Of a stretch of DNA of 64,000 nucleotides, positions 30,486 to 44,685 are shown piece by piece. The position numbers and the translations under genes were made by a program. Positions within the stretch are counted from its first letter, which is position 1. Every line of letters starts with the position of its first letter. Below the pieces are notes generated by a model. The model did no database searches. It worked only from the letters and a program-made list of their open reading frames with translations, and had not been told where the DNA came from. The DNA is from Paecilomyces variotii (taxonomy: Eukaryota): assembly GCA_004022145.1 (NCBI GenBank), contig RCNU01000001.1, one strand, 5' to 3'.

Positions 30486-31444
30486 GCGATCTACCATGTC
30501 TCGACTGATTGTAGCTCTTAAAAAAAAGCCAGTGGTTATGTCTAAAAAGCAGGCGTTGGACACGTGCTATAAAAGACTAGGAGGAGCTTGGAGTGTCTAG
30601 TATCGGCTTACTTTTCCATGTCATGCGATTACGAGTTGAGTTTGCATGCCTTGGTGTTCTGTTTCTATGTCTATGTTGTGACCCTGGTTACCCTTTTGCA
30701 TATTGTATAGGTTGTCATATTCCCCAGCTCAGCATTGCATATTATGATTCAATCCTCATGTTCATCGCTCATAGGCTGTTGTCTTTGCAACTCGTCTTCG
30801 GTGTTTTCAAGTATGTGTATTAATGATGGTAACTGCAGTTTTATATATACTGCTGAACGTGATGATGATACTACGAAATGATTCTTCTGGTCGTACCTAG
30901 GCGCCTCAAGATAACCATGCAAGTGATCTGTCATATCGCATTTAACAGTAGTCTCTTTGGAGGTTACACCGTCAACATTACAGGACCTCCAGGTCTTGTC
31001 TTTTTGATTAATACATGAGATTTCTGTGACGATCTAGGATCACGGAAGCAAAGATTCTGAGAAAGCATATGAAAAGGAGATGATCTCTGGATTGCTTGGA
31101 GAACTAATTGACACCGAAATCTACCAGCTATTTATGCCCAACGACTCTATCCAAATGCCTCGGCTATTCTGAGCTGAGCTGAACATCTAATTAAACTGAT
31201 CCATGGTTCTTCTCCCGTCTTTATTGATTCTATGCAGGTCGATGCAGGTGGCATCCCGTTGCAGCTGCTATCCGGTTTGTATAGGTGACACAGCAGCGGA
31301 ACTCAGCAGGTTTGCAGCTCGCCCCCTGTAGGAGCCGCGGGATCTGACAATTTCTCCACCTTCACGCTCCCTATGGATCCTAGATACAGGGAAGCAGGTA
31401 GATATCTGTCTGCTAGATCGTTGAAAATAACCGTTTTGCCTGTC

Positions 31445-34400
31445 TTACGGGATCTCCCTTGACAGCAGGAGTTGTACGATCTCCCTATATCCACCCGGAT
31501 AAGCTGTATCCATGTAATCCATATCTGCCTCTTTTTCCAACAGCATTTCAACAACATCATGAAGTCCCGTCATAGCGGCAATCAACAGGACATTAATGTA
31601 ATTTTCGCCACTAAGTCCAGCACCGCTCTCTGCCAGCATTCGTACTATATCCCCGCCCTCCTCAATATATGCAACCTGCGAACCATGAGAACAACCTGCA
31701 TTTCCCAATAATATTTCCGCGATTTTCGCGCGTCCTCTTTTGACAGCACCAGGCAAGGGATCTCCACGAAATGGATTCACCCCATTAATATGGGATATCT
31801 TTTGCAATAGGAGGTGTATGACCTTCTCATGTCCTCTTATGCAAGCAGCATGTATAGGACTCCAGTATAGCGCGGTGTTGGGACCTAAGTATTCGACATC
31901 GGCTCCTTTCGACAGAAGCAGACTAACAGTATCGTCATGTCCATTTGCTGAGGCATATATCAATGCAGTTGTGCCGGTGTCATCTGGTCCACCTATACCG
32001 CTAGTAGATTCGGTAACCAGTCTCTCGAGAATGTTACTATGTCCATTTAAAGCTGCCAGGTGAATTGCGCTCATTTTAGGGGATTCTTTGAGCTTTCCAT
32101 GGGGCATGTTTGCATGCCAGAATAAAGGATACCAAAGTTGAAATCGGGATGCTGTGGTGTCGTATAATTTGTATAGTAGATCAACCAGTGTTGACCCTGA
32201 TAGAGTCGACGCATTCCGAACGTGATCAGCCCAGTTCTCTGCCGCGTATCGAAGGAAACTGTGAGCGTTGGGCTCTTGTTGAGATCTAGAATCTTCTATG
32301 TCATCCATCAATAGATATCGGACACAGATCTCTGCCATTTGACTCTCGGCATCGTCCAAAGAGAAGTGATATGGAGAGCTGGCTGTAGGCTGATTGTAAA
32401 GGAGAAATTCCCTAGCAGTCTGGTGAATCAGATATACCTTCTTATCTGCTATATAGACAAACAGGCCACACAGGTGCCGTATCTTTTTGTCTAGCCCTTG
32501 CAGATCTAACCGAGCCTCATTTGCAGCTTGTGAGTCGGATGAGATAGCTATACCCAAGGCCATAGCCATCTCCTCCAAGGTCAGGGGACGCCGCGCAGCA
32601 ACTATTATTTGCAAAATCTTCCGTGCCGTTTGTTCCTGGCCATCTGGCACTCGGCTGAGAATCATTTCATATGCTGTATTCACCGAGGCAGGAATTAGCC
32701 GAATTGGCACCTTGTCTGGCCGAAGGCTATTTCGGAAAGTAGCGCAAATGTCGTCCATAGCTGAGCATAGCCACAGATATGTCCGGTGTTCCATTCCAAG
32801 GAGCCGTTTCTCAATACTTTGTGCCACATCGTGTCGCAGAGATAATGTCGTGGCCAATTCTTCCACCCTTAATTTTATCACGAGATTGATTTCGTGATGG
32901 ATCTGGTCGTTCTCCATCTCACCACGAAGGTGGATATCAGGGAAAGCAATCGTTACAGATCGGAAGCTTTCTAGGATCCTATCGTATGGGCGAGTGGTAA
33001 CCAGGAATTTTAGTTGCAATTCTTGGGGCGAGGAAGCGGCACTATGGTAGAAGTCCTTGAGCTTTTGAATTAGGCGACTTTGATCAGCGTTATGGCATTC
33101 ATCAAGCGCATCGAACACGCAGATGATAGCGCCGGAACATGCTGGATCAGATGTCGCCTCGAGAAGTATGCGCCAGAGTTGATCGACTTCTTGTTGGATT
33201 CTAGTCCCGTTTTTCTTCCAATACGGCAAAGCATGCCGCAGTAGCTCCGGCTGTTGTTCGAACAGCTGATGGAGGACAGCACATAGCGCACTGGAAAGGT
33301 TGTTTTGTTTATCGTTATCCTTGAAGAAGAAGTAACAAACAGATACCGTCGACTCTGAACGCTTGAAGTCATCCTCGATCAACGACCTGGCCAGAACTGA
33401 CTTTCCGCAACCGGGATCAGCTGATATCAATAGGAGATCATTGCATTTACTCCCAAGCCAACGAAGATATCGTTCGTCCTTCAACACCCATTGGCACGTT
33501 CCTTCTACTCGGTCAGGATTGATGTTCTTGAACTGTTCATATGCTGATGTCTTGAACGCTTGGTGACAGCGCTGTTGTTGCTCTGCCAAATGAACCGATA
33601 TGTACTCGCGATGGTGATGTTTTAATTGATCAAACATTCTTTCCAGCTCACCTTGCATACTTTCGAGCTCACTTACCATTTCTGCAGCCAGAGTTTAGTT
33701 TGGTATAAGCCACATCATTGTTTGATATTGGATCTTCAGACTACTCAACCAAAAGGAAATTGTTCCCTCTGGTCATCCTGGATCCTGGATCTAACATTTG
33801 ATATAGTATCGACGGGGAATTGACTTACTGCACACCTCCTGCGCTGAATTATGACCGGAAACTTGTCCCCGCGGCATATATCCAAGCAGTTCTTTCGCAT
33901 ATGCAGCGGCTGCCAGCGCAGCATAGCCTTGCCAATGTGTATTCTTGTGCTCATCGGCATAATCGCAGATCCCGCAGATAACTAGACAAGGAAAGGCGCG
34001 CATTACACCTGCTGCTTGCGTTTCAACGCATAGTGCGCGAGTCTCTTGACGCAGCTGCTCCCTTGTCGACCCACGCTTTATATCAGCATCCCCCGATGCG
34101 ATGATCCCATAATGTGGTAGCGGATCGTTCTCCCCGCGTTCAGGCCTTATCTCCTCCCGTTCTACTGAAGACCAATTACAGTCAGTAGCGGAAGCAGGAT
34201 GATCGTTATTTATTTTGAATAACCGATCACTTCGTGGTTCAGGACGATTGAAAATCTTTCGTAGTTGTTCAGTTCTGTTGATCGTCTTTTCCATGTACCC
34301 CGGATAACGAGGATCATCAGTCAACATCACCCCCCTCATACTGCTAACTGCAGTCAATAAAGCTGGTGGAGGGCTATTTAGACTTCCTTTTCTGCAGAAC

Positions 34401-34804
34401 CCCCGACCTGCTTCGAGCTTCCCTATATCGTACTGAAGGACGCCACCACAAGTGTCCTCGGGATAACTGACAACAATGTCACCAAGCCGTATATCATGTG
34501 TTGCTGATGGAATTCCTCCGCCGACTCCAACAACCAACCCGACCCTTAGTGACATGGAAAATGTCCGGACCATGTTATTTGCGACCGTGGCAGCCGAACT
34601 TATCCCATACCGCCCGTGTGGCAGACAAGCAATGACAACATAGTGTACACCAATCTTTCCCAGGGTGTATGAATTCGTATCTGCGCTATCCTGCTCCTGG
34701 AGGGTGCCGAAGTTCTCATCGAGCATCTCAGTTGCCGCCGCCATTTCAATAGGGAGGGCACATATCCAACCGATTTGAAACTCTTCTAGTGCGGGGCAAG
34801 GCAT
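31445..34804 (-). CDS. Fungal NLR-like protein: PNP_UDP_1 domain - NACHT (NPHP3-like) - ankyrin repeats; exons 34804-33829 and 33681-31445
   Basis: PNP: IGWICALPIE, GLVVGVGGG, DIRLGDIVVS, GICDYAD. Walker A ADPGCGKS; Walker B ICVFDALDEC; KFLVTTRPY; LIHQTAREFL. Ankyrins TALIYASANGHDDTVSLLLSKGAD and PIHAACIRGHEKVIHLLL. A GTAAGT...CAG intron joins the two ORFs in frame. Confidence 0.88.
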
Positions 34805-35551
34805 GGTTATCGTATCTATTCGGAAATATCTCGTGGTTTTATTAAGCAAACCAAATACTCTAGCTGGACAAAAATTGACTAGGTCAAAATGAATGAAGAA
34901 AATAAAACAAGTTACATGTATTGGAACAGGAATTGGAGAACAGAAGGGGTTTTATCATGTGTAGCTACTTGGACGAGAGGCGTTTAAATGAGCTAGGCTA
35001 GAATCTGATTGTCTGGGGACCGCCTCGACAAAATGATACAAGGTATGCTATACGGCATTCGTGCATGCAACAAGGGCTTGAGAGCAAGCAAATGAACCTG
35101 GAGATACGCAACTCCTGTCTATTATTGGTTGAACTTCGAGAAATAGCCGCCCTGCTCAGCCGTGGCTACGCCCGAAAGTCCATGCAGCGTTGATAGGCCG
35201 CCTCACGCCAACTGAGAGCGACTGCGCCCAATGTTTGGCGCTAAGTCAAATATCCATGTTGTCGAGAGGTGGTTGTCTTTAGGCCAAGGCTGGAGAAAAT
35301 AGCGGCGCTGGCCATTTATACCGTAAGCTATGGTCTCCAAAGCTTGAGCTGTACTCACGGGGCAGTGCAGCAATAGTTGCATATCGAAGGCGGTTAGACA
35401 CGAGGCTAACTAGCTAGTATTTAGTGCCAGCACACCGTTTCTCTCGAAGATGTCCTGAAAGCGCATAAGTTGGAAGCCCAGGATCTTCGCATTTCCATAC
35501 CTCCGGGGAAGGCGATTCAACGTTTTCTATGCTCTAACATGCCCGGTAAAC

Positions 35552-37199
35552 ATGTCGGGCGACTTGAATGGCGTACTATCGAAGACCCAAGTCGAGTCCT
35601 CAATATGGAACTCCCAATGTCAATGCAGCGACCGTACTATGAAATATCGACGACACGGTAGTGATATAATCTAAAAGTCCCATTCACTTATCTATCCACC
35701 ATCCTAATCACGTCTCAGGGAATGATAACTGGGAAGAACACACTTCCACTCTATGTAATGCGATCCGGGTAAGTCTGTGCCTAAGCGGATGCTCTGCAAG
35801 CTATTAACAGATAGCAACAGGTTGTACAATCATACTCCAGCGCCGTGGTGTGAGTTTCCCGCCTCGTGGGGAGCTGCGATCAAGTTGACTGACAATAATT
35901 CTAGATTCGGGTCCTCGAAAGAAATCAAAACCTGCAAAGAGTTGGAAGGTAGTTCTTTCTTTTGCAAAGGATTCTGGCCAGTCATACTCGACGATCTGAA
36001 TGGATCTTTTAACTGCAAATACGAAGTGGATGAAGAAGGTGATGTGACAAAACACAGTTAGTGACCCTATTCTTTGCAATAGCTACGGCTCGTTCTTATG
36101 GACTGCAGTTTCCTGGAGCTGTTTCAAAATCAAAGAAGTCCAGAAAGCTGGTACATTATCGGAAGTCTGTTATGATTGGTCCCAAGTTGCAGTTCTTGTC
36201 CAGTTTGAGCCAGCAACAGGCCGCCAGACGGTCTTCTTCCTTGATCTTCCAGCAGACCGAGAATCTCAACTACGCGAATCGATAGACTCCACTTTTGAGG
36301 GCAACCCTTATATATGGCACGCTCTTTTCATGGAACAGGCCAAGGAATTGTATGATAAGGCTATCTGGTCCGTACGACATCTTGTACGGGACGTAGAAAA
36401 GGTCCGTGTCACTTACTGTTTCGACTACTAGTGGTGCTAAACCTGAAATTCGCAGGGACGGAACAGGAAACCTCCGATTGTGCTTGATTTCCCGGACCTA
36501 CATGATATTGCAAGGCATATTTCTCACGTAAACGAAATTCTGCAAGTGGCAGAACACACAGCACAGCGCATTGTGCATGAACAAGCCACCTGGATCACCT
36601 GGAGGGAAAAAACAGATGTATCCCAGAGAGATCGCATGCGCTGGATCCAAAACCAGCAAGATCTCCTCTTCTTCACGAAGGAAATCCATTGTCTGAAGAC
36701 TAGGTCACGATCTTTAGCTGAACGTATGCAAAACGAGATCAATCTGGTAAGTAAAAGAAAAAGAAAAAGCCTATTTTGTTCCCTATCCCTGTAACTGACT
36801 TCAGGCTAGGCATTCAATCTGGTCTCGCGGGACATGGGAAAAAGCGCCCAAGGTGATAATGCAATCATGAAAACGATTGCACTTGCGAGCTTCATTTATC
36901 TCCCAGGGACATTTGTTTCTGTAAGTTTTAGTATGCCACTGCTTATATGAAATCTCTGCTCATAGTATCAGGGTCTTTTCGGTTCAAACTTCTTCAATTT
37001 AGATAGTTCAAATAGCCAAACGATATGGACTGTTTCGAACAACTTTTGGCTATACTGGGCTATTACGATTCCTTTAACGTTTGGCACGGTGATGATATGG
37101 ATAATATGGCATTATGTACCAGGTGTGAACAACTCAGTAAGGCGCATTTGGCGTCGGACAACCTTCAATTCGAACACGGATACCCCAGACATGTCATGA
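35552..37199 (+). CDS. CorA-like (helical bundle plus 2 C-terminal TM) membrane protein, about 8 exons; start codon uncertain
   Basis: Manual splicing gives an open frame including FWPVILDDLNGSF, ISWSCFKIK, NPYIWHALFME..LYDKAIWSVRHLVRDVEK, DFPDLHDIARH, RMQNEINL|AFNLV, MKTIALASFIYLPGTFVS|GLFGSNFF and FWLYWAITIPLT. The TM1-G(M/S)N-TM2 layout is CorA-like. Confidence 0.75.
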
Positions 37200-37330
37200 T
37201 GTCCTTGGCATAAACGCACAGCGGCTGTTGAAGAAGTCGCTATTCCATTATGTTTGCATGGCTGTTTTAGATCTTGTCATGGCATGTTTTGTCTCTGGTA
37301 CGTGGGTTAAGATGATAAGTAATTTTGCTA

Positions 37331-37352
37331 ATATATATATATATATATATAT
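37331..37352. repeat. (AT)11 microsatellite
   Basis: Read directly. Confidence 0.9.
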
Positions 37353-38319
37353 TTCGTTTTTTGGAGGTATATGGCGTTATACCCCGAGTATATTCTGGCA
37401 TATGGATGGTATCTGCTTTTCTTCCGGAGTTATCTGATATTACCCTTCACGTATAGATGGAATCTCTGGCTTCAGCTATATTGTGGCGAAGACTGAGGCG
37501 CCAAACACAAGGAGTCAAAACTAATCCGCTGAGGTCTACTGCAGTACCTAGTGTATCCCTTGAACGAGCGAATTAGGCAGCACAAGTCGTGTTATCGCCG
37601 CGTATTCGAATATCGATGTGAATAGGATACTGCACAAAGCACTACTTAGGCATGTCCATCTAGTGCCATGGCTATTCCTTCATAGATGCAACCTAAGTCC
37701 AAATCGACGGCGGATATCCGTATCCGCATCCTTTCTGAGACAAGTGACTCATACTTTGTGTATAAATAGTAGAACATAATTGTAATCAATTGTAATAATG
37801 ACTCAAAGATAGAAGATGACTAAATAATAATAATGGTAGTTAACTGGTTAGTTTTAACGTATCGGATCATCCATCGCTTTAACTTTTTCTGCCCGAAAAC
37901 ATCGGCGCCACCGCCGGCAAAACAGACGGGCCGTTCTCCGAGATCCCACCAATGACAGGCCGTCATTCGCGGACATAGGCGTTAAGCTGCCGCCACCTGC
38001 CTGGACATCTCAAAAGTGCCTGAGAGCACCTCAAGCTCAGCTCTGCTCTTCCTCCTTCCATTCCTTTCAAGACAGCTGCACGGCACGCTGGTAATCCCAG
38101 AACGTCAATATCAAGCACTGGGTCAATCTATATTGCCGTTGAGGCCGTCACTGTGCGTTATCCCTCTCGAACGGATAATCCAGTTAGTCCTCTCAACACG
38201 GCCGACCCCGCCTGAAGAGGAGTGGGATACAACAGTTCGTGGACCGCCGAACAGCAAGCCCTCGAAGGGCCGCAGAAGTGGAGGGGTTATTGGATCGTCG
38301 GTCAAACGAGTATCACATC

Positions 38320-41300
38320 ATGACAACTGAAGTGGCACGAGTTGCAGACCATGGCCGTCCGAGGGCACCAAGAGCGCCCAGGCGCGGAGGCAGAGGTCGC
38401 GGAGGTCGTGCGGTGAACGAAAACACATCGCGTCCAGAATCAGCGTCACAGACAAACCCTGTCTCGCAAATACCAGCACAGCACACCGACACCGCTGCGT
38501 CAAGGGAAACACAATGGTCAGCCGAGACGTCCAGAAGACGGAGACCAAGAGGGAGAAGAGGAGGTAATGGTGGCAACGGTGGCCGGGCAGAGCAGACAGA
38601 ACAGCCCCCAACGCAGAGACGGACAGATACTGGAGGCGGAGATCGGAGGACACCTAGAAATAGAGGTTCTGCCGTGGTCGGTGGGAGGAAGTTTGGAGGA
38701 CAACTGACGAGACACGGGGCTACTGACGAAGAGGGATCTGTGGGCGAGGGTGGCCATCAGAACCATACAGAGCAGGATGCAGGACTGAGGGCGGATGCGC
38801 CAGAATTTGTTCCTGGGCAGACGGTAGCGCCTCCAGGTGGTTCCGACTCGACCTCGAAGGGGAAATCAAAACCGACGCCATCTCGATCGAGACCACCAAA
38901 GGTGACAACCAAATCGACTGCGGAGGATATCACCACTCGAATCCATGAAGACATCTCCCACAATCTCTACGAGTGCCCAATCTGCACAAACGAGCTGGGC
39001 AGCAAATCTCGTGTTTGGTCCTGCAGACTCTGCTGGACGGTATTCCACCTGAGTTGTATTAAGAAATGGTCAAAAAATGAAGGTTCTGCTTTCCGCAATG
39101 ACCAGCAGCGACAACAGGATGGAGAAGACGAGACTAACACCCCGCGCCAATGGCGTTGCCCCGGCTGCAATCTCCCCCAGGACACTCTGCCAACGACATA
39201 TTCTTGTTGGTGTGAGAAGGAGGTCGACCCTCGTTCGCTGCCCGGTCTGCCTCCACATTCATGTGGACAGACCTGCTCCCGTCCCAGGCCAGGATGCCCA
39301 CATCCGTGCGATTCGATCTGTCACGCAGGTCCCTGTCCTCCATGTACTGCCATGGGCCCGACTCTGGACTGTTTCTGCGGGAAGAATTCATCTACGAAAC
39401 GCTGCGTCGAGACTGACTATGTCAATGGATGGAGCTGCGGTCAGATCTGCGAGGACCTGCTACCGTGCGGAGAGCATACCTGCCCACGGCCCTGCCACGA
39501 AGGACTTTGTGGCGATTGTGAGGTAAAGGTGCAGACAAAGTGCTACTGTGGAAAAGTAGAGACGGAGATGCTATGCAGCTCCAAAGAGGAGGAGATTCCA
39601 AGTGCACAACTATCGGATGATATGTCCCATACGGAGGAATGGATTGGATCCTTCCGCTGTGGAGAAACGTGCAATCGCCCGTTTGACTGCGGGGTGCATT
39701 TCTGCCAGAAGGATTGTCATCCCCAGGAGGCTACGGCCGCCCATTGCCCGAGATCTGCAGATGTTATCACTAAATGTCCTTGCGGCAAGACGCCGTTAGC
39801 TCAGATCCCTGGATTTTCTCCGAGAACGTCCTGCGAGGATCCCATCCCGAACTGTCAGGAGGCTTGCGGAAAGCTGCTACCGTGTGGCCATCCATGTCCT
39901 ATGATTTGCCACACCGGCGCATGTCGGCCCTGCCTGCGCATGGTCAAGATTCAATGTCGCTGTGGCCGCAGTTCATTTGACAGTGTCTGTCACCAAGGCT
40001 CGGAAGAGCCGCCTCAGTGTTTCCGTATATGCAAGGCTACTATGAACTGTGGTCGTCATACGTGTGCGGAACATTGCTGCCCAGGGGAGCGCAAAGCTCT
40101 TGAAAGGCAGGCGACTCGGCGAAAGCTGCGGTCGTTGAACTCAACCACTCGTCCTGATGATGATATCGAAGCGGAGCATATCTGTACCAGGGTCTGCGGT
40201 CGATTGCTTAAATGCGAAAAGCATACGTGCCCAGAGTTGTGTCACAAAGGGAGTTGCAATACCTGCCGGGAGGCAATCTTCGATGAAATCACATGCAACT
40301 GTGGTCGATCCGTCCTTTATCCTCCCTTACCCTGTGGTACCAAGCCACCGCCCTGCCGGTTCGATTGCGAGCGACCCAAAGCTTGCCATCATCCACAGAC
40401 ACCCCATAACTGCCATACTGATGATGAGAGTTGCCCCAAGTGCCCTTATCTGACGGAAAAGAAATGCCTCTGTGGGAAAAAAGACCTCAAAAACCAGCCA
40501 TGCTGGCTGATAGATGCACGGTGTGGCTTGATTTGTGGAAAACCATTGAAATGTGGCTCCCATACATGTCAGAAAGGTTGTCACCGTCCAGGCGATTGCG
40601 AAGATGCTACGGAGCCGTGTCGCCAGCCCTGTGGAAAGAACAAGTCGCTCTGCGGTCATGCTTGTGTAGAACCTTGCCATGCGCCTTATCCTTGTCCGGA
40701 GAAGACACCGTGTTCCACCAAGGTCACTGTAACATGTGCTTGTGGACGTTTGCGACAGGAGAAACGCTGCGGCGCCGTCAAAGCATCTATTTCAAAGGGT
40801 CAAGTGCAGCAACAGCAGCAAGCCCCTGCGTTGACTCCGTTGAAATGTGATGATGAATGCGCGCGTTTGGAGCGTAACCGCTCCTTGGCGTCGGCATTGA
40901 AGATCGATATCGACCCATCCACAACTTCCGCCAACGGTCCTTCTCCGCATATTACTTCGAGTAATCTGCCATACTCTGCAGAAACACTTGACATGTACAT
41001 CCAGCTTTCTTCGTCTTCAACTTTGTCAACGTTGCAGAGCTACGAATCAACCCTTCATTCCCTTGCCGTCAGCACTACACAGCGTTCTGTGCGTTTCCAA
41101 CCTGCAAAGGCACCTCTTCGAGCATTTGCCCACTCACTCGCTGCCGATTGGGGCTTCGCCACGGAGAGCTTCGATCCGGAGCCACACCGACACGTCTTCG
41201 TCTTGAAACCTACATCCTGGACCCCGCCAATTTTCGGGTTCGGCAACGGTTCGTCCATGGGAATCGGTGGAATGAGCGTTGGTGACTGTGTGAAGTTCCG

Positions 41301-41799
41301 AGAGAGGGAAAGGATGAAGGAGCGCGAGGCTCAACGAGCAGCTCTAGCGGAAGCAAAGGCGCTCCGTGAAGGCAACGCCGGCTCGAAAGCCAGCGGTGCG
41401 GACGGTGGCTGGGCCCAAGTCGCATCGCGAAGGAAAAACGGTTCAGATTCTACAAATGCTCCGGCAGTGATGAAGACAGGCGGTGTTCCATCTTTCTCCG
41501 GTTCATTCTATGCCGCTCTTTCGGGTGACTCCACTGAGCGGAGCGGAAACAGTGGACGCTTGGTTCTACGGTCTGGTGTGGGCGCCAGCAAGAACCTGCG
41601 TAACAAAGTTGAAGTTGCGGATAGTTGGGAAGAGGAGGTTGAGAAGGAAGAAGAAGAGGAAAAGAAAGAGATGGAACAAGCACGATCGGAAACCTCTGGT
41701 GATGGAAAGGATCAGAGCCCCCAGGGTCCCCACAATGATGGCGACACCATAGACAAAAGTGAGAAATTTGGCGTTGAAAGCGTTACTGGAAAAAAATGA
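38320..41799 (+). CDS. NF-X1-type zinc-finger protein with RING and R3H domains (FAP1/NFX1-like), single exon
   Basis: RING YECPIC...WSCRLCWTVFHLSCIKKW...WRCPGC; many NF-X1 repeats (LPCGxHxCxxxCH); R3H RAFAHSLAADWG; RGG-rich N-terminus and PAM2-like LRADAPEFVPG. First ATG is at 38320. Confidence 0.92.
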   Translation: MTTEVARVADHGRPRAPRAPRRGGRGRGGRAVNENTSRPESASQTNPVSQIPAQHTDTAASRETQWSAETSRRRRPRGRRGGNGGNGGRAEQTEQPPTQRRTDTGGGDRRTPRNRGSAVVGGRKFGGQLTRHGATDEEGSVGEGGHQNHTEQDAGLRADAPEFVPGQTVAPPGGSDSTSKGKSKPTPSRSRPPKVTTKSTAEDITTRIHEDISHNLYECPICTNELGSKSRVWSCRLCWTVFHLSCIKKWSKNEGSAFRNDQQRQQDGEDETNTPRQWRCPGCNLPQDTLPTTYSCWCEKEVDPRSLPGLPPHSCGQTCSRPRPGCPHPCDSICHAGPCPPCTAMGPTLDCFCGKNSSTKRCVETDYVNGWSCGQICEDLLPCGEHTCPRPCHEGLCGDCEVKVQTKCYCGKVETEMLCSSKEEEIPSAQLSDDMSHTEEWIGSFRCGETCNRPFDCGVHFCQKDCHPQEATAAHCPRSADVITKCPCGKTPLAQIPGFSPRTSCEDPIPNCQEACGKLLPCGHPCPMICHTGACRPCLRMVKIQCRCGRSSFDSVCHQGSEEPPQCFRICKATMNCGRHTCAEHCCPGERKALERQATRRKLRSLNSTTRPDDDIEAEHICTRVCGRLLKCEKHTCPELCHKGSCNTCREAIFDEITCNCGRSVLYPPLPCGTKPPPCRFDCERPKACHHPQTPHNCHTDDESCPKCPYLTEKKCLCGKKDLKNQPCWLIDARCGLICGKPLKCGSHTCQKGCHRPGDCEDATEPCRQPCGKNKSLCGHACVEPCHAPYPCPEKTPCSTKVTVTCACGRLRQEKRCGAVKASISKGQVQQQQQAPALTPLKCDDECARLERNRSLASALKIDIDPSTTSANGPSPHITSSNLPYSAETLDMYIQLSSSSTLSTLQSYESTLHSLAVSTTQRSVRFQPAKAPLRAFAHSLAADWGFATESFDPEPHRHVFVLKPTSWTPPIFGFGNGSSMGIGGMSVGDCVKFRERERMKEREAQRAALAEAKALREGNAGSKASGADGGWAQVASRRKNGSDSTNAPAVMKTGGVPSFSGSFYAALSGDSTERSGNSGRLVLRSGVGASKNLRNKVEVADSWEEEVEKEEEEEKKEMEQARSETSGDGKDQSPQGPHNDGDTIDKSEKFGVESVTGKK

Positions 41800-42153
41800 G
41801 TCATGAACAGGGAGCTTAATAGATTCTACACAACAGCTGATGATTTGTGTTCTTTTTTTTATGACACGAATTTTCCCCCCCATTGTTGTGGCTGGATGGC
41901 CTCTTAGCGTTTTATTTAATATTTGTACATAGAGATTTGCTCTGGATGAGCGGGTGCATGGTGTATATATTATCGAAGAAAAATATTCTTGCCAATTGGC
42001 TGTTTCGTTTCTGTCTACTAGTGCCTCGATTATGCAAGATAGTTGATATAGAGTAAATGAAACTTCGCGACTTAGTATTTGCCAAGCATTCTCTGCTATA
42101 TACACATGGTAGACCGTTCCATACACCCACCCCGTCGGCCGTAACTAGATCAT

Positions 42154-44685
42154 CTAGAACGAAAAATCTTCTAGAAGTTGCGTTCCAACAGTCGACAGAC
42201 TCGGCGGCAGATCTTCCGGCCTTGTACCCCAGCTACTCTCTTCATTTCCAAGAGTCAACTCCAACGTCATTCCTTCCGTGAAGAATTCATGCCCGATCCA
42301 ATTCTTCGAATACGGTCGGCCATTGAGGGTAGCGTTCTGTATATAGATACTCTGGTATGTCTTATCGAAATTGACATTCCGGATCGTAGCAGTTTGATTA
42401 GTCTCGGGATGTGTAAAGCTCACGGATTCAAAGAATGGCGGGGTGATTAAGTATACATTTTGTCCTGGGTTAGGGAAAAGACCTGCCATTGAGAAAACGG
42501 TGAAGGCTCCCATGGCTCCCGAGTCGTCGTTTCCTGGAAGGCCATCATTCGAGGCGTTGAATGATGCGGGTATGTAACTGTGGGAGCGACGCGCAGAGAG
42601 TGCTGGTCGGCCTGCGTAATGATATTGGAAGACGGTGAGGAAGACTGGCTCGTTACCAATGTCGGCGAGACCTGAGGTGTGGAAGAAGTCGAGACGCGAG
42701 ACAAACTCATCGGGGCCTCCGAGTAGTTTGATTAAGCTTGCCATGTCGTGAGGAACGTAACTACAATCTTGAGGTTAGTGGTCAAATAAACAAATGAGAC
42801 TAAAACATATCGGAAAGGGCCCACTAACAACTGGTACTCCCAGATGCTTGATTCGAACGTCTCTGAGGGATTAGAGGTCAAGGAGCAGAAGTCTGTAAGG
42901 GGACTGCAGGCAATAGGATCTTGATATCCCCATGTGCCATTGAGGAACTTCGGTTGGAAGAAGCCGGCGAATCCAGTATCTGTACCGTTGATGAATGACT
43001 CCTGATCTGCTTTGAAGAGGTTCTTCCAATTAGATGCTCTCGAAAGATACTTCGTATATTCTTTCCCTATACCCCTGCCTACTGTTGACAGGCTGAAGTC
43101 ATTATAGGAATATTCCAAGGTTCGAGAAATGCTCCTCGAATTGGTTCCGAATCCTAGGTAGTCGAAATCAAGGTACGGGATATACTTTAGTCGTTTCCAG
43201 CTCATAAGACCTCCTCGCCCCTCGTAGGACCACTCCAGTGGCTCGTTTTCAGCGTCGTTGACCATCGCTTTGTAGGCAAGATTCCAATCGATCCCGGTAA
43301 GGTTCTTGATATAGGCATCTGCGAGGAGTACATCCGCATTGGAGCCACCCTGCGTCCATCCTTTACAGAGACTCATCCGGCAATCTGGGAGCCATCCCTC
43401 GTGGACATAGGTGTCGAGAAGACTACGTATCATGCTGGATTGCGCGCTGGGATCTATAATGGTCAAGAGTGGATGCTGGGCCCGGAAAGAGTCCCAGATA
43501 CTGCAAAGCAAGGCGAGTCAGTCAGTTGTACTGGCCGGAGTAGATTGTCTAGAAGAGAGGGTATAGTCACCAGTAGAATGAATCGAAATAAGGCTCCCCG
43601 CTCTCCCAGAGAGGATTCTCCCCGGTGTAATCCTGGGGTGAAAGCATCGTTCTATAAATGCCACTCCAGAAACTTGTTAAAAGAGCGTCGCTCGCTCCTC
43701 CCGCCTCTACTGAGATTGGACTGAGCTTTTCTCTCCATGCTGCTTCAGCACGTTCCCGCAGGGAGTCGAAGTCTCCTACAGGATTAGGGATCTCCCGTTG
43801 CGCATTTTGACAAGCTTTGTCGGTGCTGATGAAGCTCACTCCCACTCTTGCATTCACTACGCCGTCACTAGGTCGTTGGAACCTGACGAAGCCACCCGCC
43901 TGGATATAGAAATTGTTAAAGCCGCGCGTAACATATAGCTTCTTTGGCTCGGTTCCTGCTCTGTTGTTGACCCAAATTCCACTGTCATGGACAGCCGCGC
44001 CAGCAAAATCGACACAGAAGTATGAGACGTATGAGCCGGCACCGAAACTGGGAAGAAAAGTTCCATTTCCCGTGATCCTACCTGTCGTATGATCAATACC
44101 AATTGAAGCATTCTGCCGACTGTCCCACTCATCGGTCAAATCGAGCAGCATCAAAGGACTCAGCACGGAACCATTGCTGGTTGTCTCCGCCGGAAAGTGA
44201 AATCTATACAGCGCTGCATGTTCCGTGGCCGTCATTTCAGCCTGGATGCCATTCTGTAAACTCAAGGCGAAATAACCAGGTCGGGCAACAACGGAATTTG
44301 CGATATAAGGCAGGGCGCGATCGGCCTTGGGAAACTTGCAATTGTCGATCTCGTCTTCAGGACAATACTGCGGGAATAAAGGGAAATTTCCCAACGATGG
44401 ATTACCACCCGTGCCTGAATCATGCATATGGGAAAACCCAGTTATGTTGCTTTTATCGGTCGAGAAGCCTCCTGTATTCTGACCATTGACATCGGCTACA
44501 GGTTTCGCCATGCCATAAGGCAGGCTTGCGCCTGCGAAGACGTTGCCACCATTGTCACTTCCGATCAAAGGGTTCACATAGCGCAGCACGTCTATCTCCG
44601 CCTTGCTTGCAGGGCCACTGGATGCTCCCCAAGCTGGTTCTATAGCAAATAGCAGGAAGAAAGCAGCTTGTCGCAGTGAGCACAT
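42154..44685 (-). CDS. Secreted GH92 alpha-1,2-mannosidase, 3 exons
   Basis: Signal peptide; YVNPLIGS, GASLPYGM, GFSHMHDSGTGG, YC|IWDSFRA, TQGGSNAD, SRTLEYSYNDF, DIGNEP and GLPGNDDSGAM. Confidence 0.93.

Follow-up and report, generated by a model that had tools for sequence, protein, structure and literature searches.

A candidate two-gene fungal NLR module with a CorA-fold membrane protein as putative co-effector

Why should a membrane protein of the CorA fold be encoded beside a fungal NOD-like receptor (NLR), and do the two act together? The question is raised by a 64,000-nucleotide stretch of Paecilomyces variotii contig RCNU01000001.1 (GenBank assembly GCA_004022145.1; hereafter the window, meaning this whole stretch), in which an NLR gene with an N-terminal PNP_UDP domain (31445..34804, - strand) and a CorA-like gene (35552..37199, + strand) diverge from a spacer of 747 bp. 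Judged by sequence comparison, these two gene kinds are neighbours far more often than background, across many fungal lineages of deep divergence and in three orientations, and they probably work together. We consider it likely, if well short of certain, that they form a conserved two-gene fungal NLR module with a CorA-fold membrane co-effector; the coupling between the NLR and the CorA-fold protein is itself something that we infer.

Both genes are intact, spliced and expressed, and RNA contigs back every intron. The NLR coding region specifies 1070 aa in two exons (exon 1, 33829-34804; exon 2, 31445-33681 including the stop), separated by a single 147-nt intron (33682-33828) across which an RNA contig (X5) joins 33681 to 33829, and the spliced frame is open from the ATG at 34804 to the stop at 31445-31447. 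The CorA-like coding region specifies 419 aa in an open frame of eight coding exons (35552-35657, 35719-35768, 35821-35849, 35905-36056, 36109-36401, 36456-36746, 36810-36920 and 36972-37199, the stop being 37197-37199), each placed by RNA joints. It is preceded by a non-coding first exon in the 5' leader (34915..35322, + strand, left end undefined), which an X5 contig joins from 35322 to 35425 over a leader intron at 35323-35424. All eight introns of this gene, seven coding and one in the leader, are GT..AG in the X5 joints, and four of these joints recur in a metatranscriptome from a different study (X15). The spliced product is 100% identical to the annotated P. variotii proteins P0165 and P0166, and a single exon of the gene already matches a P. 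variotii protein at 99% identity. Pfam matches, RNA contigs and open frames thus bear out the coordinates, exon count, start codons and spacer of about 750 bp that an initial annotation of the locus had given from the DNA letters.

We assessed how often the pairing recurs by scanning metagenome contigs with a 14-sequence alignment of the CorA-like family (alignment A2), which returned 80 loci representing 66 distinct groups at ≥95% nucleotide identity. PNP_UDP neighbours were sought by tblastn with the window PNP exon and with a hidden Markov model (HMM) derived from 64 PNP segments taken from NLR homologues. By both methods in agreement, a PNP_UDP gene lay beside the CorA-like match in 13 of the 80 loci, corresponding to 9 of the 66 groups; every PNP match was 392-2678 bp from the CorA-like match, and none occurred elsewhere in the 626,516 bases of these loci. 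Groups with at least 1.5 kb of flank on a side were counted as evaluable. Among groups of the full-length family, whose match starts at residue 235 or earlier and reaches the N-terminal domain (27 groups, 14 evaluable), nine had a PNP neighbour, compared with none among control groups matching only the transmembrane part, from residue 268 or later (39 groups, 25 evaluable). The difference (9/14 vs 0/25) gives a Fisher's exact p of 9.4e-6 for a full-length/control division that was drawn after the data were seen.

Fungal genomes hold on average 46 STAND (signal transduction ATPase with numerous domains) genes, with PNP_UDP making up about one fifth of annotated N-termini, according to the available text of PMC4986451; we estimate the chance of a PNP-NLR neighbour at ~0.2% per random gene if ~10,000 genes per genome are assumed. 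The initial annotation had proposed that homologues of the membrane protein should adjoin NLR genes more often than chance. The prediction held up, at least four of the PNP_UDP neighbours being PNP-NACHT NLRs, with the qualification that the association is specific to PNP_UDP and does not extend to NLRs at large.

In the family tree L009, L010 and L043 form a single lineage, and the link is counted in 7 of 12 independent lineages, to which the window and Pyricularia are added, with independence of the metagenome lineages judged from their divergence alone. PNP-linked lineages fall on both sides of the midpoint root and are interleaved with unlinked ones; the branches that separate the linked lineages measure 0.3-1.5 changes per site in the CorA-like tree. 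Seven of the nine linked groups are arranged head-to-head as in the window, while L020 is tandem and L066 convergent. NACHT follows PNP in L002, L010, L014 and L037, three of which also encode ankyrin repeats, and at least five linked cases have PNP fused to both NACHT and ankyrin repeats; the open reading frames (ORFs) behind PNP carry no Pfam family in L020 and L026. The window PNP domain is 33-45% identical to the PNP genes next to CorA-like genes at seven metagenome loci and 42% identical to that of P0145, a Pyricularia pennisetigena gene model comprising CorA-like, PNP_UDP, NACHT and ankyrin-repeat parts in that order. Since its PNP part starts at residue 64 of the window domain and a near-identical stand-alone relative of 446 aa exists, P0145 probably fuses two tandem genes into one model; in either case it shows the CorA-like and PNP-NACHT-ankyrin gene kinds adjoining each other in a Sordariomycete. 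An attempt to read adjacency outside Paecilomyces from accessions or locus tags yielded no case: the 120 best NLR matches comprised none from the species with the closest CorA-like homologues, and for A. caelatus, a species represented on both sides, the contigs were of different length.

As a separate observation, L066:2232-4037 holds the CorA-like gene, a convergent PNP_UDP gene that is possibly stand-alone, and a NACHT-like ORF divergent from PNP. This layout resembles the split pairs of PNP_UDP effector and NLR known from amyloid signalling.

The post hoc division of the groups and the way in which lineages were counted weigh against the proposed module, as do several further points. The link is facultative: in 5 of the 14 evaluable full-length groups (5 of 12 lineages) up to 10 kb of surrounding sequence contains no PNP gene, and the neighbours in these unlinked groups (L004, L012, L016, L021 and L061) are ordinary ones (ADH and EthD; F-box; a MARCH6-type ligase; a leucine-rich repeat protein plus a transcription factor). 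The closest CorA-like homologue outside Paecilomyces is A. fumigatus AFUA_5G09730 (53% identity). In the accessible text of PMC4208449 and PMC9064804, AFUA_5G09720 is a putative oxidoreductase and AFUA_5G09740 has a role in conidiophore development, and an NLR is apparently absent beside AFUA_5G09730 if locus tags 10 apart denote immediate neighbours. The PNP and CorA-like trees also disagree for L037 and L026, whose PNPs group with full support and whose CorA-like partners sit in different halves of the family. This conflict may reflect partner swapping or a long-branch artefact, and long branches make either reading unsafe. Finally, bacterial PNP_UDP is regarded as an effector that suffices by itself (bioRxiv 10.1101/2023.01.24.525353, in the part of the text available), so a second effector need not be present.

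The loss of the link in 5 of 12 lineages would also fit an adjacency that is functionally empty, namely an old neighbourhood maintained by a shared bidirectional promoter, or a pair copied jointly by segmental duplication or with a mobile island, with no biochemical coupling. The predominance of head-to-head layouts (7/9) and the location of both window genes in one low-GC island (~30500-38000; GC 0.40-0.50 vs 0.51-0.57 in the flanks by composition profile) are in keeping with this explanation. However, a shared promoter leaves the tandem and convergent layouts (L020, L066, P0145) unexplained, the linked lineages are as far apart as the branch lengths above indicate, and none of the 25 control loci of the same metagenome scan was linked; we therefore regard empty adjacency as quite improbable.

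What kind of protein is the partner? The initial annotation had described a CorA-like protein with two C-terminal transmembrane (TM) helices, and structure prediction agreed with it. Pfam CorA (PF01544) matches the protein at 37.8 bits (cut-off 27) over aa 266-390, covering profile positions 169-289, that is, only the last third of the profile. An AlphaFold2 (AF2) model built from 14 relatives (mean predicted local distance difference test, pLDDT, 77.7, with the N-terminal 24 residues as the low-confidence part) predicts an alpha/beta domain at the N-terminus, a set of three long helices and two C-terminal TM helices, in agreement with the cytoplasmic alpha/beta domain, long stalk helix and paired TM helices that mark the CorA superfamily. 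The top Foldseek matches of this model are Thermotoga maritima CorA chains (E = 3e-10 over ~375 columns; TM-score 0.39-0.51); sequence identity to solved CorA chains is ~10-13%. In the model, TM1 comprises aa 324-351 (36858..36992, + strand), being broken in the gene by the intron at 36921-36971 with an LPGTFVS motif before it, and TM2 comprises aa 369-392 (37044..37115, + strand). The YLPGTFVS-GLFGSNFF segment corresponds to the end of TM1 plus the GMN signature, a G-S-N loop (36981-36989, + strand) standing at the signature position.

The GMN motif at the end of TM1 is the Mg2+ filter of CorA. Close relatives of the window protein carry G[MTSA]N at this position (alignment A2), and GMN is replaced in eight of the nine PNP-linked lineages that were read: by GSN in the window, SMS in L009, L010 and L014, SMT in L020, STS in L026, GMS in L066 and SMP in P0145, with L002 as the only linked member retaining GMN. 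Because the filter is not conserved among PNP-linked members, a plain Mg2+ transporter is argued against. A motif that is strongly conserved in the cytoplasmic part, LHDIARH..H..E, is rich in His and Arg and specific to the family. The family comprises 2356 representatives (50% clustering) at E ≤ 1e-3 and 129 at E ≤ 1e-30, and these more than 2000 sequence clusters of fungal CorA-like proteins are probably not Mg2+ transporters.

These data bear on the possibility that the pair serves ordinary metabolism and not defence, with an enzyme of the nucleoside phosphorylase type and a transporter of divalent cations jointly maintaining nucleotide or Mg2+ homeostasis. In most organisms PNP_UDP and CorA have housekeeping roles, and the GMN retained by L002 would suit a transporter. 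Set against this are the linked cases, five or more in number, in which PNP is joined to NACHT and ankyrin repeats, the loss of GMN in most linked members and the extreme divergence of NLR alleles within one species (see below), and such a metabolic role appears very unlikely.

Two further features of the family were observed. The intron at 36921-36971, which splits LPGTFVS from the G-x-N segment, is found at the same position in many distant relatives, including L009, L010, L014, L020, L026 and L066, and also in many of the matches covering the transmembrane part only; it is evidently an old intron of the fungal CorA-like lineage. Of 150 family representatives listed (149 of them new proteins), 11 exceed 600 aa, 10 of which were run against Pfam. 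Eight proteins of 790-1080 aa (P0020, P0021, P0025, P0027, P0028, P0051, P0052 and P0055) have the CorA-like module fused to a common N-terminal extension, reaching ~600 aa in the ~1000-aa forms and without a Pfam family in all seven that were scanned. An ESM Atlas feature search led to SSY5/Peptidase_S64-like clusters at 0.90, a lead only, by which the CorA-like module may have a second, protease-like partner. One other representative above 600 aa seems to have been merged with a lactamase gene, and a search for longer, fused CorA-like relatives returned two proteins, neither of which had an NLR domain.

The other half of the pair has the build of a fungal NLR of the STAND class, with a NACHT centre, C-terminal repeats, an effector-type domain at the N-terminus and high polymorphism within the species. 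Two ORFs in the same frame contain its domains: PNP_UDP_1 in 33791-34951 (- strand), and NPHP3_N/NACHT, DUF7069, a winged helix and ankyrin repeats in 31445-33694 (- strand), according to Pfam. The PNP_UDP domain (33829..34804, - strand; aa 1-325) passes its Pfam threshold marginally (PF01048, 26.4 bits vs cut-off 25.1), and is 39-99% identical to the 64 PNP segments of NLR homologues. The NACHT-type nucleotide-binding domain (32990..33502, - strand; aa 65-235 of the ORF translation) matches NPHP3_N at E = 1e-38 and NACHT at 25.5 bits, slightly below the cut-off of 26.7. Its C-terminal sensor part is an ankyrin repeat region (31530..32080, - strand) detected by Ank_2 (E = 2.6e-27) as well as by Ank, Ank_3 and Ank_4.

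Within P. variotii the NLR varies to a much greater extent than its neighbour. Locus tags place the NLR and CorA-like genes next to each other in five further strains, and in the diverged strains X7 and X13 the interval is collinear through 31350-42500. A deletion in these two, considered on the basis of low word shares (0.48 and 0.40), was rejected, the contigs being collinear and the sequences diverged. No strain lacking the NLR or the CorA-like gene was seen wherever this was checked, and joint gain or loss is thus not observable. NLR alleles are 100% (P0199, over 946 aa), 96.9% (P0201) and 96.6% (P0200) identical to the window NLR in one class, and 69.4% (P0236, DTO164E3_3956), 65.4% (P0203, DTO271D3_479) and 65.3% (P0246, strain No. 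5) in another. In this diverged class PNP and NACHT show 65-69% identity, while the ankyrin part either is missing or shows 48%; the ankyrin repeats are the most diverged part of the NLR between alleles. By comparison, the 12 CorA-like variants listed are mostly 95.7-100% identical to the window protein (92.8% for P0168, a shorter model of 369 aa), and the CorA-like neighbours of P0203 and P0236 remain 95.9% identical, such that one conserved CorA-like partner apparently serves very different NLR alleles. Such an allele pattern is commonly seen where fungal NLRs experience diversifying or balancing selection. In the tree, the strain No. 5 allele clusters with a P. lecythidis gene, and this class may represent a trans-species polymorphism, as at fungal incompatibility loci.

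Separately, the X7, X13 and X15 contigs have small deletions at 35567-35575, just past the CorA-like start codon (3+1+1+1 bases in X13 and X15). These fit the 416-417-aa CorA-like variants annotated in other strains.

The contrast between a conserved partner and a hypervariable sensor, as if many alleles shared one partner, is what would be expected if the CorA-fold protein were not an effector and instead served as a target under guard, as a decoy, as a membrane anchor or to restrain the NLR. The NLR would then keep watch over the protein or be kept inactive by it, with linkage holding matched alleles together. The same linkage data fit this role, and PNP_UDP already provides an effector activity. 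However, hypervariable ankyrin repeats suggest variable ligands and not a conserved self protein, and the constant neighbour across loci is the PNP domain and not the repeats, the PNP gene of L066 being possibly stand-alone. We regard a guarded, anchoring or restraining role as possible but unlikely.

If the CorA-fold protein is instead a co-effector, the module could act as follows. The sensor would be a STAND ATPase with ankyrin repeats and an N-terminal PNP_UDP domain of the kind that cleaves ATP elsewhere, and the partner a CorA-fold membrane protein, presumed to be a pentamer, whose gene shares the short spacer and is transcribed in the opposite direction. Once the NLR is activated, the CorA-fold protein would act as a membrane co-effector (a pore or a cation channel); the trigger for its opening would be a PNP-domain product, the drop in ATP or contact with the NLR oligomer. 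Membrane failure would thereby be added to ATP loss in a cell-death or defence response. In the available part of bioRxiv 10.1101/2023.01.24.525353, the PNP domain of Hyaloscypha variabilis NLRN is reported to cleave ATP in vitro, PNP domains are described as immune effectors in bacteria, and fungal PNP-NLRs are stated to fall in the defensive PNP clade; it is by that statement about fungal PNP-NLRs that the window PNP domain may be assigned to the immune (Cap17-like) clade. A predicted complex of CorA-like residues 25-320 with the PNP domain scored 0.00, which is evidence neither way.

A more specific and rather doubtful version would have PNP_UDP produce a signal in addition to draining ATP: NLR activation would yield ribose-5'-triphosphate or adenine, and this product would bind the cytoplasmic LHDIARH..H..E motif and open a non-selective pore. 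If true, eukaryotes would have an equivalent of the SAM-AMP/CorA branch of type III CRISPR, and a fungal NLR would for the first time be credited with an effector channel gated by a second messenger. Under the broader co-effector proposal, the linked CorA-fold protein is a concrete and testable candidate for how PNP-NLR receptors act, and it would extend the role of CorA-type proteins in immunity from bacterial CRISPR to eukaryotes.

The spacer between the two genes (ATG to ATG, 34805-35551) holds both 5' leaders and is covered by RNA contigs over its whole length. The X5 contig of the NLR 5' end (33829-34922) and that of the CorA-like leader (34915-35322) abut or overlap. As these contigs reach 34922 and start at 34915, the NLR and CorA-like transcripts appear to begin back to back or to overlap, although RNA contigs reveal neither strand nor true transcript ends; a shared promoter, if any, must sit near 34915-34922. 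The pair is flanked by LYAR and NF-X1, as initially annotated, with a zf-LYAR exon on the left and an NF-X1/R3H protein (38188-41799) on the right. The other genes of the window are housekeeping genes (Vac7, PrpF, cyclin, ATP11, GH92, sirohaem synthase and GidA), and no cas genes were found among the genes of the window.

At the right border of the pair, a single X5 RNA contig of even depth runs unbroken from the CorA-like gene across the 1-kb gap (37199-38188) into the NF-X1 gene. This continuity could represent read-through, overlapping untranslated regions or an assembly join, among which the contigs cannot discriminate. At the left border, just downstream of the NLR stop, a stretch of 337 bp (31013-31349) is missing in the X7, X13 and X15 contigs, which have 16 other letters in its place. 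The stretch is multi-copy in all four runs, with a summed contig depth ~6-18x that of adjacent bins, and looks like a dispersed repeat insertion; no inverted, direct or terminal repeats were found in 31013-31349.

How does the pair compare with known systems? The initial annotation had likened it to fungal NLRs encoded next to a separate effector gene, such as NWD2/HET-S, and to the CorA-family nucleotide-signal effectors of some type III CRISPR systems, and had considered the pairing undescribed in fungi. The first two precedents agree with what is given in the accessible text of PMC9815663 and PMC10600005, respectively. For the third, no published description was found, with the reservation that the supplementary neighbour tables S2 and S4 of PMC9815663 might list such neighbours. 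A literature search returned no paper combining PNP_UDP and CorA, nor one combining nucleoside phosphorylase, CorA and NLR; the available text of the fungal NLR papers PMC12258605, PMC12881547, PMC4986451 and PMC10197012 contained no mention of CorA, and that of bioRxiv 10.1101/2023.01.24.525353 no mention of a membrane partner gene for fungal PNP-NLRs.

Pairs of NLR and neighbouring effector in fungi involve HeLo, HeLo-like, sesA and PNP_UDP partners linked via amyloid motifs, according to the available part of PMC9815663. Pairs of the NWD2/HET-S type resemble the window pair in that the NLR and a membrane-acting partner gene are immediate neighbours whose linkage is conserved across fungi (same source). 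As described there, however, their NLR lacks an enzymatic domain and has at its N-terminus a short amyloid motif, for which the partner (HeLo, HeLo-like or PNP_UDP) carries the match, whereas the window NLR begins with a full PNP_UDP domain and its partner is predicted to be a CorA-fold integral membrane protein. With the PNP domain starting at about residue 7, the window NLR has no room for an N-terminal amyloid motif; no motif shared by the NLR and its partner was seen in the window pair, the CorA-like tail not having been motif-searched.

The type III CRISPR effector is, in the portion of PMC10600005 available, a divergent CorA protein that binds SAM-AMP and is activated by it. Like the fungal protein, it is a divergent CorA membrane protein tied genetically to an immune sensor that acts on ATP, and it combines a C-terminal CorA-like transmembrane module with a family-specific cytoplasmic domain. 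It differs in being prokaryotic, Cas10-dependent and accompanied by NrN or SAM lyase (PMC10600005), and its N-terminal domain is described there as a unique fold, whereas the modelled fungal protein matches CorA over its whole length. With the canonical CorA/Alr1/Mrs2 Mg2+ channels (T. maritima CorA 8tmb, 4i0u) the fungal protein shares the overall predicted fold, the LPxTF...G-x-N-F sequence ending TM1 and two TM helices. Unlike those channels, it has S in place of the M of GMN, the motif is lost in most PNP-linked relatives, and the fungal family conserves LHDIARH..H..E instead. The resemblance to Cap17/DtcC ATP nucleosidases and PNP-NLRs lies in the PNP_UDP domain at the N-terminus of the NLR, as in Hyaloscypha variabilis NLRN (bioRxiv 10.1101/2023.01.24.525353, as far as its text was available). 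NLR-neighbour pairs and CRISPR CorA effectors are thus both already known, and the new element appears to be the CorA-fold partner of fungal PNP_UDP NLRs.

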